64,000 nt of DNA, taken from assembly GCA_017403085.1 (NCBI GenBank), contig JAFQOQ010000009.1, positions 69,066-133,065 on the forward strand, written 5' to 3'. Under the pieces are notes generated by a model. The model was not told the DNA's origin, did no database searches, and was given only the letters and a program-made list of their open reading frames with translations. Source of the DNA: Alphaproteobacteria bacterium (GTDB lineage Bacteria; Pseudomonadota; Alphaproteobacteria; Rs-D84). Below are positions 14,301 through 59,986 of this stretch, in pieces; positions within the stretch are counted from its first letter, which is position 1; the number at the start of each line of letters is the position of its first letter. The position numbers and the translations under genes were made by a program.

Positions 14301-14419
14301 TGACCCTGTTTGGTTTGTTCAAGCGATTTATGGAATGTATTGTTTTCACGCCAGTATTCTAGCACCTGTTTTTCCAACATAGGAAAATCGGCGCGCGCAT
14401 CTGTTTTTTGGTATGTCAT
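11396..14419 (-). CDS. ileS: Isoleucine--tRNA ligase (type 2, IleRS2-like)
   Basis: FYDGPPFANGLPHWGH, GWDCHGLP, WTTTPWTLP, EGQDQTRGWF, KFSKS; type 2 C-terminus (RK.AGLDVSDRI). Confidence 0.95.
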   Translation of the reverse strand: MTYQKTDARADFPMLEKQVLEYWRENNTFHKSLEQTKQGHPFSFYDGPPFANGLPHWGHLGVSVVKDMVARFQTMCGRHVNRELGWDCHGLPAENSVEKNVGKSAKDIVASDGIAAFCDMCRTDVMTYTSEWNHFITRMGRWVDIGDGYGYKTMDKNYMESMLWTLKSLYEKGLLYKDYSVNPYDWVNGTVISNSEASSDYREIVDDAVTVWFELENGDRAIAWTTTPWTLPANSALAVNPNMTYLRMQDSDGAVYVIAESRLKAYEKQFANATQIGTVRGADLVGLHYTPLFPYYAGQSDLLFQIIPADYVSDSDGTGIVHIAPAYGAEDFWAAKNIDPKFPVLLNVDTYGNFDETVADFAGENIFAATPRIMDWLKSNGKLVKKEQYKHSYPFGDRSKEKLIQRATDSWYIDVPKIKDKLLANNARVNWTSAGERFRSWIENARPWSISRNRFWGMPLPIWERDGEFKIFGSIAELEEFFGVKIDDLHRPTLDKLTRDGWTRIPDVLDCWVESGSMPWASLHYPFENVDKFNATFPADYIIEGQDQTRGWFYALMVLATALFDKPAFKAVSANGMVVDENKKKFSKSLRNFVNPEQQIEQYGADAVRLYILGSNFMKAEPVPVDKEGKVFVESTKVIQTPLWNAYHFFTLYANAGNVTAHQISNPTNALDKYILSELNVLIGVVKKSLDEYKPDTAIKEFVRFLDVLNNWYIRRGRARFWDEEQDAFDTLYTVLTVFCRTLAPFAPFVSEYIYRNLTGDESVHLTAFPTADSTDEKIVEDMRRVQMIVSVGKQLREQHKLRNRLPLNSLTVAGVNMPEYADIIKDELNVKSVMFNETFADIADSFVYLITPKIGARLGGALKDIIPAVKRGDYEVQGDKLFVAGHTLNSDEFETRLNVRDGVSGAALPDSTAVVVLDTNVTADLVAEGLANDALRFIQDTRKAAGLDVSDRIVLTYSADPALANAMDAHKKRIMRDALIVEMVAGDGEYTDDIEGYNLSVSVKRA

Positions 14420-14449
14420 AGTTTTTTACCTTGGTCTGTTTTTTATATT

Positions 14450-14499
14450 AAAAATGGGCGCGTATGCGCCCCAGCCACGTGCAGAAGCGCATGTAGCCA
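14450..14499 (-). promoter_or_regulatory. Transcription attenuator of ileS (pause, antiterminator and terminator hairpins)
   Basis: Terminator GGGCGC-ATAC-GCGCCC-ATTTTT (14471-14450); competing ATGCGCTTC/GGGGCGCAT helix; upstream TGGCTACATGC/GCACGTGGCTG hairpin. Confidence 0.85.
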
Positions 14500-14532
14500 T
14501 TATTTAATAATAATTATTGTTGTTTGTTTCAT
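14500..14532 (-). CDS. Ile-rich leader peptide MKQTTIIIIK
   Basis: ATG AAA CAA ACA ACA ATA ATT ATT ATT AAA TAA directly upstream of the attenuator hairpins and ileS. Confidence 0.85.
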   Translation of the reverse strand: MKQTTIIIIK

Positions 14533-14571
14533 GATAAATACCATACAACGTATAAATATAAATTGCAATTA

Positions 14572-16875
14572 TTATTTATCACGGATTTTTGCGTCGCATT
14601 TTGATTCAACCGCCGCAATAACAGACGACTGTAATGTCTGTAAATCTTCGTCAGACATGTTGTCTGTCGGCTGAATCACAATGGTAAATGCAATTGATTT
14701 TTTGCCATCCCCCATATCAAATGCATCAAAGACTGTTGCACTGATGATACGTGCATCAACCGATGTGGCGACGCTGGTTAATTTTTCAGCCGGTGTGTCA
14801 GACGATGTGACAAAGGCAAAATCGCGTGTAATTGGCTGAAAATCAGATAACACAGGTTGCTTTGCGCGACGCGCAGATGGCAAATTCACAATATTATCAA
14901 CAATTGCAATAACTACGTTTGTTTTTATACGCAGTTTTTTTGCAACGGATGGATGCAATTCACCAAATTCTGCAATTTTCTTTTTGCCCTGCATTAACGC
15001 ACCATAGCGGTATGGATGCGCCCATTTTGGTGCGTTTTCTGTCGATACAGTAAAACGCTGGCCCGACATTAGTGCAATCAAATCAGCCTTGACGTCATAA
15101 ATATCAACATCGCGATTGCGGCCAGTCCAATGCTTTGGTGCGATTGCGCCGGTACGTACAATGCATACCCCGGTATGCTGCTGCGTTGGTGCATCACCAT
15201 CAAACACAACACCCAATTCAAACAGGTTTAAATCAGGATAACCACGCTTTTCATTATTTGAAACAGCATACAGCAAACCAAACAGCAAACCATTGCGCAA
15301 CGTGTCATAATCAGACGTAATCGGATTTGCGATTTTTATATTTGGTTTATCCGACAGTATCTGTTCGGTTTCACAATTACCAAAGCCAAATGAACGACAC
15401 TCGTTCAGGCCACGCGATGCCAATAAACGTTTTATATGTAATTCTTTGTCGTCATGCGGGATTGCTTCGCCCGTTGTATGCGCATGATTTACAGATAATT
15501 TTTCATATCCGTATATACGCAATAGGTCCGCAACAATTGTTTCTGGGATTTGAACATCAACACGCGAATACGGTGGTGTGACCATCCAATCATCCCCGTT
15601 AATCGTAACCGCGTATCCCAGGCCCAACAATATATCACGCTGGGTGTCAGGTGACATATCAATACCTGTCTTTTTCATAAAATATGATGGTGTATATTTT
15701 ATCACAACAGGCGCAACATCATCAGAGCCAGCCGCACAAGTACCAATTATTTCACCACCACATACAGACATAATAATGTCTGCGGCACGCATTGCGGCAG
15801 CGCCTGTTATCGTTGGGTCAATTCCGCGTTCGTATCTATATGACGCATCTGTTGATATTCCCAGGCGTTTGGCCGTCTTGCGAACGCAGACCGGATCAAA
15901 ATACGCAGATTCCAAGATAATATTCTTGATTGTATCCGTCGTCGCGCCACGCGCACCGCCAACAACACCCGCCAATGCCAAAATACCAGTGTTATCAGAA
16001 ATAACCATATCTGTTTCAATCAATTCGTGTTCATTGCCAAACAAATCAACGAACTTTTCACCATTGTTTGCCATACGAACAATGATATCGCCGTCTATTT
16101 GGTCCGCATCAAAGCAATGCATAGGCTGGGCCATGTCATAGCAAATGTAGTTCGTTGCATCGATAGGTGCATTTTTTGGATTGATACCAATTGCCGCCAA
16201 CCTGGAAGCGATTTTTTTATCACTTGGTTTAACGGCAATATTATGAATTTCAATCATTTTATATGCACGGCATTTATCCGTTTTTAACACAACACTGCGC
16301 GTACCAGAAACATTTTCAAAAGCCTTGTCCGTTGGTGCGATATATGTACCAATACCCGCGGCAGACAAATCACGCGCAATACCACGAACAGATAAGTAAT
16401 CTGGACGATTTGGGGTAATGCCCGCATCAAATACAACTTTTGCATCTAAAACCGGAGTGCCAATTTTTGTATCTGCGTCCAGTTCAATAATGCCACTGTG
16501 ATCATCGCCAATCCCCAGTTCCTGGGCACTGCACATCATGCCATCAGATAATACACCACGCAATTTACCAGATTGAATTTCATGCCCCGCAATTACACAA
16601 CCCGGCACCGCCAGCGCAGATACCAGTCCCACACGGGCATTTGGGGCGCCACATACAACCTGGCGCAGGTTGCCAGTACCATCATCAACACGCAACACGT
16701 GCAAATGGTCACTGTTTTCATGTGGGGCGCATTCAACAATCTTGGCCGCAATTGGCACAATAGGCGATACAACTTCTTCTACTTCTAGTCCAATACGGGT
16801 CAATGTATCTGCAATACAGTTTGCAGATGCATCTGTGTTTAAATATTCTTTTAACCAATCATATGTCCATTTCAT
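14572..16875 (-). CDS. pheT: Phenylalanine--tRNA ligase beta subunit
   Basis: WLKEY, VVCGAPN, TPNRPD, SYRYERGID, ITRDFAF. Confidence 0.96.
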   Translation of the reverse strand: MKWTYDWLKEYLNTDASANCIADTLTRIGLEVEEVVSPIVPIAAKIVECAPHENSDHLHVLRVDDGTGNLRQVVCGAPNARVGLVSALAVPGCVIAGHEIQSGKLRGVLSDGMMCSAQELGIGDDHSGIIELDADTKIGTPVLDAKVVFDAGITPNRPDYLSVRGIARDLSAAGIGTYIAPTDKAFENVSGTRSVVLKTDKCRAYKMIEIHNIAVKPSDKKIASRLAAIGINPKNAPIDATNYICYDMAQPMHCFDADQIDGDIIVRMANNGEKFVDLFGNEHELIETDMVISDNTGILALAGVVGGARGATTDTIKNIILESAYFDPVCVRKTAKRLGISTDASYRYERGIDPTITGAAAMRAADIIMSVCGGEIIGTCAAGSDDVAPVVIKYTPSYFMKKTGIDMSPDTQRDILLGLGYAVTINGDDWMVTPPYSRVDVQIPETIVADLLRIYGYEKLSVNHAHTTGEAIPHDDKELHIKRLLASRGLNECRSFGFGNCETEQILSDKPNIKIANPITSDYDTLRNGLLFGLLYAVSNNEKRGYPDLNLFELGVVFDGDAPTQQHTGVCIVRTGAIAPKHWTGRNRDVDIYDVKADLIALMSGQRFTVSTENAPKWAHPYRYGALMQGKKKIAEFGELHPSVAKKLRIKTNVVIAIVDNIVNLPSARRAKQPVLSDFQPITRDFAFVTSSDTPAEKLTSVATSVDARIISATVFDAFDMGDGKKSIAFTIVIQPTDNMSDEDLQTLQSSVIAAVESKCDAKIRDK

Positions 16876-57725: not shown

Positions 57726-57965
57726 ATGTTTTATGTTTATCTTTTGCGAAGTATAAATTTCCCAGAACGTTTTTATGTTGGTTGTACAGGTGATTTAAAA
57801 AGACGCTTAAAAGAACATAATGATGGAAAATCGATATATACCAATAAATTTAAACCATGGACCCTGCATGGGTATGTGGCGTTTGATAGTGAAGAGAAAG
57901 CACGGAATTTTGAAAATTTTCTTAAAACAGGTAATGGCAGAATATTTCAAAAGAAATTCTTTTGA
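57726..57965 (+). CDS. Small stand-alone GIY-YIG nuclease
   Basis: FYVYLL...FYVGCT.DL.RRL.EHN.G.S.YT....PW......E..LK.G.G. Confidence 0.9.
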   Translation: MFYVYLLRSINFPERFYVGCTGDLKRRLKEHNDGKSIYTNKFKPWTLHGYVAFDSEEKARNFENFLKTGNGRIFQKKFF

Positions 57966-57987
57966 TTGTATTTTTTTTATAAATTGC

Positions 57988-58016
57988 TTGCCATTGAGAA
58001 AAAAGGTAGATATACT
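57988..58016 (+). promoter_or_regulatory. Sigma70 promoter of the aspS leader
   Basis: TTGCCA-17 bp-TATACT. Confidence 0.75.
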
Positions 58017-58021
58017 CTTGT

Positions 58022-58200
58022 CTGTGAGATTCATCCGTTTTGCGTTGTGATGATATGACTGACAACCATGGAATGACGCAACAGATAAAAAAGTTATAAA
58101 TCAGGGTGGCACCGCGCAGCCGAATTGACTTGCGCCCCTGAAGGTTAACAATCAAATGTGGGTGCCGAAATTCCAAATTTTGTTTTTCGCGCCCGAAATA
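58022..58200 (+). promoter_or_regulatory. T-box riboswitch-like leader of aspS
   Basis: Antiterminator TCAGGG-[TGGCACC]-GCGCAG...TTGCGC-CCCTGA (58101-58141); short upstream stem 58033-58086 with GAC in its loop. Confidence 0.8.
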
Positions 58201-58216: not shown

Positions 58217-59986
58217 ATGTTATCTTTGAAATCAAAGTACAGAACGCATACATGTGGTGAACTAAACACATCTAATGTGGGCGAAAGTGTTGTTTTATCG
58301 GGTTGGGTACATCGCAAACGCGACCACGGGTCATTGATGTTTGTTGACCTGCGTGATAATTACGGTATTACCCAGGTGGTTTTTGACGGTGGTAACGAGG
58401 CGTTGGAAAAAGTACGCCCGGAATCCGTGATTAAGGTTGTTGGCACCGTTGTTGCGCGTGATGCGTCGGCCGTCAATGATAAAATTCCAACCGGTGGTAT
58501 TGAAATTCAGGCGCAATCCTTTGAAGTTTTAACAAACGCAGATATTTTGCCATTCCAGGTATTTGGCGACGATGATTCTGTTGCCGAAGATTTAAGATTA
58601 AAATATCGCTATATCGATTTAAGACGTGAAAGTCTGCACAAAAATATTTTGTTCCGTAATCGCGTGATGAAATTCTTGCGCGATAAAATGTGGGATATGG
58701 GCTTTTCAGAATTCCAGACACCTATTTTGACCGCGTCATCGCCAGAGGGCGCGCGCGACTTTATCGTTCCCAGTCGCAATCATCATGGGATGTTCTATGC
58801 GTTGCCCCAGGCACCACAGCAGTTTAAGCAGTTTATTCAGATTTCTGGGTTTGACCGCTATTTCCAGATTGCGCCATGTTTCCGCGACGAAGATTTGCGT
58901 GCGGACAGATTGCTGGAATTTTATCAGTTGGATTTGGAAATGTCGTTTGTGGACCTGCCAGACATTCAGGCCGTCGGTAATAAATTAATGCCGGAAATGA
59001 TACGCGAATTTGTGCCTGGCGCAAAAATATGTCCGGAAATTCCACACATCCCATTTGACGAAGCGATGCTGAAATACGGTTCAGATAAACCTGATTTGCG
59101 TAATCCAATCATTATTCATGACGTGACGGAAATTTTCCGCGGGTCTGATTTTGGTATTTTTGCAAATGCCATTGAAAATGGCGCCGTTGTGCGTGCAATA
59201 CCCGCACCAAATTCAGCCGATAAACCACGTTCTTGGTTTGATAAATTGGGCGAATTTGCAGTCAAAGAATTAGGACTGGGTGGATTGGGATATATCGTGT
59301 TCGCCGAAGAAGCCAAGGGACCAGTTGCGAAAAAGTTAGATGAGGGGCGCATCGCAAAGTTGCGTGAAATCGCAGGTGATAATTCATCATTGTTCTTTGT
59401 TTGTGATGAAAAAAATACCGCAGCCAAGGCCGCCGGTAAATTGCGCAATAAATTGGGCGATGATTTGGGCCTAATTGACCCAAAAGAATTTAGATTCTGT
59501 TGGATAGAAGAATTCCCATTCTTTGAAGCGGACGAAGAATCACCAACGGGTATTGCATTTACGCATAATCCGTTCTCGTTCCCGATGGCAACGCTGGAAG
59601 AATTGAATACAAAAAATCCATTGGAAATCAAGGCTGCACAATTTGACATGGTATTAAATGGTGCGGAAATCTGCAGTGGTGGCTTGCGAAACTTTAACCC
59701 AGAGGTTATGTTAAAATGCTTTGACATCACCGGGTACAGCGAAGATGTGGTCAAGGAAAAGTTCGGTGGTATGTACACAGCATTCCAATACGGTGCGCCA
59801 CCACACGGTGGTTGTGCGTTCGGTTTGGACAGATTGGTTCAAATTATGTTGGATGAACCAAACCTGCGCCAGGTTGTGATTTTCCCAACCAATCAACGCG
59901 GACAAGACTTGATGATGGGTGCACCAACAACTGTAACAGAAAAGCAGTTGCGCGAAGTACACATTCAGGTTCGCAAAAAGAACTAA
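58217..59986 (+). CDS. aspS: Aspartate--tRNA ligase (probably non-discriminating Asp/Asn)
   Basis: YRTHTCGEL, RKRDHG, LPQAPQQFKQ, CFRDED.RADR, GAPPHGG.AFGLDR. Confidence 0.96.
   Translation: MLSLKSKYRTHTCGELNTSNVGESVVLSGWVHRKRDHGSLMFVDLRDNYGITQVVFDGGNEALEKVRPESVIKVVGTVVARDASAVNDKIPTGGIEIQAQSFEVLTNADILPFQVFGDDDSVAEDLRLKYRYIDLRRESLHKNILFRNRVMKFLRDKMWDMGFSEFQTPILTASSPEGARDFIVPSRNHHGMFYALPQAPQQFKQFIQISGFDRYFQIAPCFRDEDLRADRLLEFYQLDLEMSFVDLPDIQAVGNKLMPEMIREFVPGAKICPEIPHIPFDEAMLKYGSDKPDLRNPIIIHDVTEIFRGSDFGIFANAIENGAVVRAIPAPNSADKPRSWFDKLGEFAVKELGLGGLGYIVFAEEAKGPVAKKLDEGRIAKLREIAGDNSSLFFVCDEKNTAAKAAGKLRNKLGDDLGLIDPKEFRFCWIEEFPFFEADEESPTGIAFTHNPFSFPMATLEELNTKNPLEIKAAQFDMVLNGAEICSGGLRNFNPEVMLKCFDITGYSEDVVKEKFGGMYTAFQYGAPPHGGCAFGLDRLVQIMLDEPNLRQVVIFPTNQRGQDLMMGAPTTVTEKQLREVHIQVRKKN

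Follow-up and report, generated by a model that had tools for sequence, protein, structure and literature searches.

An isoleucine-codon leader conserved upstream of ileS in Rs-D84 alphaproteobacteria as a probable ribosome-mediated transcription attenuator

What is encoded in the 152 nucleotides (nt) that separate pheT (16875-14572) from ileS (14419-11396) on the minus strand of a 64,000-nt stretch of alphaproteobacterial DNA (GTDB order Rs-D84; assembly GCA_017403085.1, contig JAFQOQ010000009.1, positions 69,066 to 133,065; hereafter the window), and how might this interval act on the isoleucyl-tRNA synthetase (IleRS) gene that follows it? A preliminary description of the window, drawn from the sequence alone, had proposed that the interval carries a complete isoleucine leader-peptide attenuator controlling ileS. 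Our follow-up places the whole element within the gap, and the positions that had been assigned to its promoter, upstream open reading frame (uORF) and helices all proved correct on the minus strand. The parts exist, are conserved in related genomes, form mutually exclusive helices and occur solely in front of ileS. The element is very probably a leader-peptide, that is ribosome-mediated, attenuator, whichever the direction of its response, and we favour, with moderate confidence, its explanation as a transcription attenuator of ileS in which isoleucine starvation leads to read-through. The presumed regulated gene starts at ATG 14419 and encodes a type-2 (eukaryote-like) isoleucine--tRNA ligase of 1007 amino acids (TIGR00392, 772 bits against a cut-off of 621).

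The leader ORF, MKQTTIIIIK* (14500-14532, minus strand), comprises ten codons and a stop (ATG AAA CAA ACA ACA ATA ATT ATT ATT AAA TAA), with the four Ile codons at 14517-14506 and the TAA at 14502-14500; ileS starts 80 nt past this stop. No other short ORF in any of the six reading frames of the window has at least four successive Ile codons, and a run of four isoleucines is absent from the 14,235 codons of the 28 long ORFs found there. Three helices follow. The first, H1 (GGCTAC.TGC / GCA.GTGGCT; 14473-14498), forms in the minimum free energy (MFE) fold and would act as an anti-antiterminator and possibly as a pause hairpin. The antiterminator pairs a 5' arm, ATGCGCTTC (14484-14492), with a 3' arm, GGGGCGCAT (14464-14472), which overlaps the 5' arm of an intrinsic terminator; the latter, GGGCGC-ATAC-GCGCCC (14471-14456) followed by A-TTTTT, extends over 14450-14471 and is the top entry of the terminator scan. 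The Shine-Dalgarno (SD)-like AAGG of ileS (14429-14432) and then the ileS ATG follow, about 30 nt downstream of the terminator U-run. Counted from the A of the AUG, the Ile codons occupy positions 16-27, the Lys codon 28-30 and the stop 31-33, followed by H1 at 35-60, the antiterminator at 41-49/61-69 and the terminator at 62-67/72-77.

The MFE structure of the 121-nt leader consists of H1 and the terminator (-28.6 kcal/mol, z = -3.59) and was matched in stability by none of 200 shuffled sequences, with individual contributions of -10.9 kcal/mol for H1, -14.7 kcal/mol for the 9-bp antiterminator and -13.1 kcal/mol for the terminator. Each antiterminator pair crosses each H1 pair and has an arm in common with the terminator, so that the antiterminator excludes both other helices, as had been claimed from the window alone; by the same token, the antiterminator can arise only once H1 has opened.

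To what extent is this arrangement maintained in related genomes? Comparison of the window IleRS with a species-level genome collection matched 367 stretches, 331 of which encode a relative, and we used the best 80 of these 331. Their IleRS proteins are 75-89% identical to that of the window and derive nearly all from gut or rumen metagenome-assembled genomes labelled Candidatus Enterousia or uncultured Alphaproteobacteria. After removal of one locus in which the 5' end of ileS is missing (L033), 79 loci were testable, and 78 of them carry a uORF with at least three consecutive Ile codons at the same place 5' of ileS, which bears out the conservation that the preliminary description had asked after; together with the window they make up the 79 leaders analysed below. 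The sole related locus without a leader, L068 (2869-3003), has instead a tRNA-Thr(CGT) gene and a different, plain terminator, with ileS starting 24 nt further on. A covariance model trained on all 79 leaders returned 79 matches in the 748,683 nt of window and loci combined, all of them directly 5' of ileS. Two of the loci, L067 and L017, are labelled 'Muribaculaceae' and 'Rickettsiales', yet their leader is the same and their IleRS shares 78-79% identity with that of the window; these labels look like binning or naming errors. In L049 (2804-3003), the leader is intact and the distance from uORF stop to ileS is 164 nt, as compared to 68-89 nt in the others; the extra segment of about 90 nt lies past the terminator U-run and ahead of ileS.

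The conservation pattern within the uORF resembles that of a coding sequence. Its length is ten codons in 75 leaders, nine in three and eight in one, and in 75 leaders the Ile run is followed by a single Lys or Arg codon and TAA. Position 1 of the run is ATA in 76 leaders, GTA (Val) in two and ATT in one; position 2 is ATT in 74, ATC in four and ATA in one; position 3 is ATT in 78 and ATC in one; and position 4 is ATT in 63, ATA in 12 and ATC in two. Changes within the run are thus all synonymous save for the two GTA codons. Residues 2-5 vary freely (35 distinct versions), and the non-coding spacer ranges from 24 to 32 nt in 1-nt steps while the uORF frame stays fixed. Synonymous-only change in the run, together with a fixed frame and free change before it, is the pattern expected from selection on a translated Ile run, and we infer from it that the uORF is translated. 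As a separate observation, the first position of the run retains ATA, in contrast to the freedom among ATT, ATA and ATC at the fourth.

At the RNA level, we evaluated the helices on a MAFFT alignment of 79 rows, 75 of them distinct (A1), and on a realignment to the covariance model (A2), which leans towards the model. The terminator is paired in 96.6% of cells on A1; on A2 the share is 99.1%, and compensatory CG-to-UA changes are seen at two of its pairs. The antiterminator is paired in 88.3% of cells, as compared to 30-73% when its 3' partner is slid by one to three columns, and shows GC-to-AU changes in three rows and UA-to-CG changes in four; seven of its pairs constitute the consensus structure that RNAalifold, unguided, returned for A1. 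Furthermore, in three leaders (L011, L014 and L050) the common arm reads GGGGTGC rather than GGGGCGC and is matched by GCAC in the antiterminator 5' arm and by GCACCC in the terminator 3' arm. The first of these matched positions sits in the H1 loop, so that the antiterminator alone explains its change, and the three cases may represent one ancestral event. H1 is the more plastic helix: the register of its lower stem shifts between lineages, with paired cells of 64.9% on A1 and 70.8% on A2, and across 61 distinct sequences its median energy is -10.2 kcal/mol (z = -2.0); the H1 segment together with the common arm reaches -15.8 kcal/mol (z = -1.8). No T-box or other Rfam family matched the leader at its gathering score in the window, and no T-box was found on 14380-14620 at E up to 10; the Rfam Leu, Thr, Trp, His and Phe leader families gave no match to the leader either, the only entries being five unrelated families at noise level (E = 2.6-5.3).

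From where would this leader be transcribed? A -35-like TTGCAA (14563-14568) and a -10-like TATGGT preceded by TG (14540-14545), separated by 17 nt, lie on the minus strand with the -10 element 7 nt from ATG 14532. In the window sequence taken alone this promoter is weak evidence, since it agrees with the consensus at 8 of 12 positions and the scan, with its minimum of 9, hence does not list it. Conservation across loci speaks more clearly. We sorted the 79 leaders into 56, including that of the window, with no tRNA gene directly upstream, 22 that follow a tRNA-Thr gene, and one (L009) cut by a contig end. Of the 56, 53 show the pattern TTGnnn-17 nt-TAnnnT at 7-10 nt from the start codon, as opposed to 0-1 of 56 with anchors displaced by 12-96 nt and a mean of 0.35 of 56 in shuffled sequences; the conserved profile reads ACTTGnnTTTT...TGTAnnnT, and gaps of 7, 8, 9 and 10 nt between -10 element and start codon are found in 22, 23, seven and four leaders, respectively. 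An SD-like motif precedes only 9 of the 79 uORFs, as compared to 73 of the 79 ileS starts, where it stands 4-16 nt upstream. These conserved distances give good support to a predicted transcription start at, or at most about 3 nt from, the uORF AUG, and since the promoter keeps a fixed 7-10 nt from a start codon that lacks an SD motif, the leader mRNA is probably leaderless, as the preliminary description had also considered likely. An alternative, overlapping promoter listed by the scan, GTGATA-16-TATATT (14582-14555), lies off the pattern conserved across loci and was set aside.

Gene order upstream of ileS varies between the loci, with pheT in the window and tRNA-Thr in 22 leaders (L001, L012, L016-L018, L044, L048, L049, L051, L063, L064, L066, L067, L069, L070, L072-L074 and L076-L079). 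In these 22 the uORF starts 9-20 nt past the CCA end of the tRNA gene rather than behind a promoter, and, judged from this layout, the leader would be made via co-transcription with the tRNA and its processing. ARAGORN, run on six loci, assigned the anticodon CGT in five, including L011, where the tRNA lies further upstream, and L068, which has no leader, and TGT in one. In the window, the end of pheT lies 4 nt from the -35 element and the terminator scan found no terminator between pheT and the leader; pheST read-through transcripts can also enter the element.

We propose that these parts work together as follows. Transcription would begin no more than about 3 nt away from the AUG that opens the ten-codon leader ORF, or the transcript would arrive from the tRNA-Thr gene 9-20 nt upstream in other genomes and, in the window, also by read-through from pheT. 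H1 would be the first helix to form and would sequester the antiterminator 5' arm; the terminator would form next and halt RNA polymerase about 35 nt short of the ileS ribosome-binding site. The speed of the ribosome over the four Ile codons would then serve as a readout of the charged tRNA-Ile supply. At low charging, a ribosome held on the last Ile codon would abut H1 and open its base, whereupon the antiterminator (about -15 kcal/mol, against about -10 kcal/mol for H1) would displace H1, occupy the terminator 5' arm and let the polymerase enter ileS. At high charging, the ribosome would advance to the stop codon and cover the start of the antiterminator arm, or depart and let H1 re-form, and transcription would terminate. 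The classical polarity, in which starvation causes read-through, is probably the correct one, because it agrees with the physiology, with the codon-to-arm spacing described below and with an H1 weak enough to be tipped by partial invasion.

Does the geometry of the leader allow such a switch? To locate the boundaries at which each helix fails, the RNA was masked up to a moving position in all 79 sequences, with offsets that take the first stop-codon base as zero. H1 is intact up to +4 and then weakens to -7.5 kcal/mol at +6, -5.8 at +8 and -4.4 at +9. The antiterminator remains at about -15.8 kcal/mol until +10 or +11 and falls to -10.4 at +12 and -5.3 at +14. In parallel, the barrier for refolding from H1 to the antiterminator (findpath) decreases from 13.5 kcal/mol with H1 intact to 10.0 at +6, 8.9 at +7 and 6.5 at +9. 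A ribosome is classically taken to reach 12-13 nt from the first base of its A-site codon, and shorter reaches of 8-11 nt come from helicase and frameshift-spacer work. For a ribosome on the last Ile codon, partial opening of H1 lowers the estimated barrier: from 13.5 kcal/mol with H1 intact, it becomes 10.0 if the reach is 12 nt and 8.9 if it is 13 nt. Eight Escherichia coli K-12 leaders (including trpL, leuL, pheM, pheL, thrL and hisL) were put through the same scan. In trpL, leuL, pheM and pheL, as in the leader described here, the antiterminator is lost once the mask extends 18 nt beyond the first base of the last clustered control codon.

Several observations weigh against this picture, and the assertion that the geometry fits the classic model is put too strongly: the 18-nt spacing agrees with it, as in trpL and pheM, the placement of the control codons relative to H1 does not, and the stop codon stands at an unusual distance from the antiterminator arm. 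None of the four Ile codons overlaps H1; they all precede it, and 10 nt separate the start of H1 from the first base of the fourth. At a reach of about 12-13 nt, this fourth codon alone would bring the ribosome into contact with H1, opening 2-3 bp, and stalls on Ile codons 1-3 make no contact at any realistic reach; for reaches of 8-11 nt, H1 would survive the stall unopened and the barrier would remain at 13.3-13.7 kcal/mol. H1 weakens +11 to +16 nt past the last control codon, as compared to about 0 to +9 in trpL and pheM. At the other end, a reach of about 12-13 nt lets a ribosome on the stop codon cover just 2-3 nt at the start of the antiterminator arm, and the arm is lost +12 to +14 from the stop, rather than +6 to +9 as in trpL and pheL or +9 to +12 as in pheM; loss from the stop codon is reached only if the ribosome extends at least 12 nt, and one that extends 8-11 nt from there would leave the arm ideally exposed. 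Individual loci add to the strain: in L077 and L018, the left arm of H1 is the antiterminator arm itself, starting 8-9 nt past the stop, and the stop is displaced upstream by 3 nt in L071 and by 6 nt in L080, layouts that are difficult for both polarities. At the predicted mRNA 5' end, three leaders (L022, L023 and L035) start their uORF with GTG, from which leaderless translation initiates poorly in E. coli. Finally, the 79 sequences are close relatives, so that their counts are not independent events, and covariation is thin because the core is nearly invariant.

These features raise the possibility, unlikely in our estimate and still deserving of serious attention, that the polarity is inverted: a ribosome that has passed the Ile run and reached the Lys or stop codon would unwind the lower stem of H1, license the antiterminator and switch ileS on, and one stalled on Ile would leave H1 in place and cause termination, so that ileS expression would fall when Ile-tRNA is scarce, as a local control of stringent type. 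In the mask scan, the optimum for the antiterminator indeed lies at +8 to +11, the site of a ribosome with a reach of 8-11 nt and the stop codon in its A site; there H1 retains -5.8 to -3.5 kcal/mol and the antiterminator still -15.8 to -14.7 kcal/mol, the barrier is 6.1-8.4 kcal/mol as opposed to 13.5 with H1 intact, and the equilibrium terminator probability is 0.42-0.66 against 0.76-0.95 elsewhere. The placement of every control codon upstream of H1, unlike in the eight E. coli leaders scanned, points the same way. Such a device would nonetheless impose positive feedback on an essential enzyme, and to our knowledge every characterised amino-acid-codon leader and every synthetase-gene T-box induces on starvation. 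The 18-nt spacing between last control codon and antiterminator arm is that of classical attenuators, and in L080, with its more distant stop, a terminating ribosome would not open H1. The dip in equilibrium terminator probability, confined to masks at +8 to +11, was also tried as an indicator of polarity and rejected as such: it is absent from the trp, thr, leu and his leaders (trpL, thrL, leuL and hisL) and is thus not diagnostic. Should the inverted polarity be true, the element would represent a new regulatory logic, in which a translation gene is governed in cis and in a stringent-like manner, within a genome of about 1 Mb.

Two further explanations dispense with a sensor of bulk Ile-tRNA charging. 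The hairpin could simply terminate the upstream unit, pheST in the window or tRNA-Thr elsewhere, with the ORF an incidental AT-rich frame and ileS expressed by leak-through or from an unseen promoter. No other terminator separates pheT from the leader, so the element would also end the pheST transcript, and the proximity of tRNA-Thr in 22 of 79 leaders and the simple terminator that alone stands between tRNA-Thr and ileS in L068 fit such a role; we nevertheless consider it very improbable as the whole account, given that a conserved promoter intervenes between upstream gene and uORF in 53 of 56 leaders, where the terminator cannot serve the upstream gene, that uORF length and Ile run are kept through synonymous changes in 78 of 79 loci while the flanks diverge, and that antiterminator complementarity is conserved. 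Inspection by eye of the window and loci likewise found no acceptable -35 element and no conserved spacing between the terminator U-run and the ileS SD, which leaves neither room nor a conserved motif for a promoter there. The least probable account, which extends the earlier suggestion that the ATA codon might report lysidine status, is that the leading ATA senses lysidine-modified tRNA-Ile2 rather than bulk Ile-tRNA, or that the hydrophobic decapeptide is itself functional. The constancy of ATA in 76 of 79 leaders, set against the free choice at position 4, is in its favour, but ATA is not rare here (23% of the 1,037 Ile codons in the 28 long window ORFs) and occupies the Ile position furthest from the structure, 19 nt from the base of H1, where a stall would have no structural effect at any reach; lysidine sensing thus finds no support. 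A function of the peptide itself is at odds with the lack of conservation in its residues 2-5. Starvation-induced read-through into ileS hence remains the explanation that we prefer.

The genes around the element are assigned with varying firmness: ileS, pheT, pheS, rplT and mutS score above their NCBIfam cut-offs, and rpmI and nth below theirs. The window IleRS is the long type-2 form and a housekeeping relative of the mupirocin-resistance proteins MupA and MupB, neither of which it is, as its 593 and 588 bits against the respective models fall far under the cut-off of 1900. In the rplT-pheS interval, two terminator-like hairpins are found on the minus strand (17915-17902 and 17884-17859), and ATG 17841, which follows AAGGTAAAG, is a likelier pheS start than the TTG 17898 of the ORF list. 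We found no Phe-rich leader ORF before pheS, unlike the pheM annotated in E. coli K-12. The G+C content of the window is 0.32 between 52001 and 56000 and about 0.37-0.44 elsewhere.

The window might harbour a second charging sensor. T-boxes are uncommon in Alphaproteobacteria; a T-box match nonetheless lies on the plus strand at 57883-58142, upstream of aspS (58217-59986, plus strand; NF001750, 744 bits), and scores 38.9 bits against a gathering threshold of 93 (E = 2.5e-7 over 381 nt). Its 3' part, clearest at about 58100-58142, contains AAUCAGGGUGGCACCGCG at high posterior probability, and its Stem I aligns poorly and, judging from that alignment, may be reduced; no obvious U-run terminator follows the match. 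The idea that this genome employs two different charging sensors, a peptide for ileS and a T-box for aspS, is thereby rendered plausible, with the aspS half resting below threshold.

In broader terms, the ileS leader would be a very compact (about 85 nt, ten codons) and well-conserved attenuator in an uncultured gut alphaproteobacterial lineage. The window comes from a bacterium resembling Candidatus Enterousia. Enterousia, of the order Rs-D84, is reported to have genomes mostly below 1 Mb and without amino-acid biosynthesis (PMC12306168), and an attenuator in such a setting would mean that cis-acting charging sensors survive strong genome reduction. Its probably leaderless start could offer a system for studying 70S initiation at a 5'-AUG synchronised with RNA polymerase over about 85 nt, and the placement of the control codons upstream of the first helix makes the direction of the response directly testable. 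The covariance model could further be used to flag the element in additional Rs-D84 genomes.

How does the element relate to known systems? The established case of leader-peptide attenuation in a synthetase operon is E. coli pheST, which is also the only textbook one. Like the pheM leader of that operon, the ileS element combines a short ORF rich in the cognate codon with an antiterminator/terminator pair and the 18-nt spacing; unlike it, it has no control codons within the first helix, since in pheM these are part of a helix more stable than the antiterminator, and pheM has 14 codons and an untranslated 5' leader. In the E. coli leaders generally, the first helix equals or exceeds the antiterminator in stability, whereas H1 here is about 6 kcal/mol weaker. 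With trpL it shares the four-segment logic of mutually exclusive 1:2, 2:3 and 3:4 helices and the 18-nt spacing from the last Trp codon, although in trpL region 1 overlaps the Trp codons and the regulated genes are biosynthetic. The antiterminator arm collapses 12 nt from the stop codon here, as compared to 9 nt in pheM and 6 nt in both trpL and pheL. As to the regulated gene, the element resembles the ileS T-boxes of Firmicutes and Actinobacteria, which likewise control ileS in response to tRNA-Ile charging; T-boxes, in contrast, bind uncharged tRNA directly, and the leader described here has no T-box match and, at about 85 nt, is far too short to be one. Among predicted systems, the available text of PMC1262725 lists leader peptides before trpS and leuS in Streptomyces and translational T-boxes before ileS in Actinobacteria. 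Regulatory short ORFs at the 5' end of leaderless mRNAs that sense one amino acid by a codon run are also described, in the available part of a preprint, for mycobacteria, where leaderless polycysteine ORFs act as Cys-responsive attenuators (bioRxiv 10.1101/834739), in another phylum and with another amino acid and other target genes.

In the literature searched, which did not include the proteobacterial attenuator survey of Vitreschak et al. 2004, leader-peptide attenuation of ileS through Ile codons was nowhere described, and just one related item turned up, a mention in Caulobacter crescentus. There, an 'ileS leader CDS', CCNA_03934 of strain NA1000 (796784-796828, minus strand), was mapped by ribosome profiling as a 45-nt coding sequence (CDS) 78 nt upstream of ileS and tabled as leaderless with a 5'-PPP site; in the available text it serves as a control and is given no mechanism (Schrader et al. 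2014; PMC4117421). The implication that such an arrangement is unknown for ileS was therefore overstated. The likeness, that of an alphaproteobacterial leaderless short CDS before ileS, is one of position and listing, and the 14 codons of CCNA_03934 stand against ten here. The ileS element is thus a further case of a known attenuator type, with a close precedent in Caulobacter.

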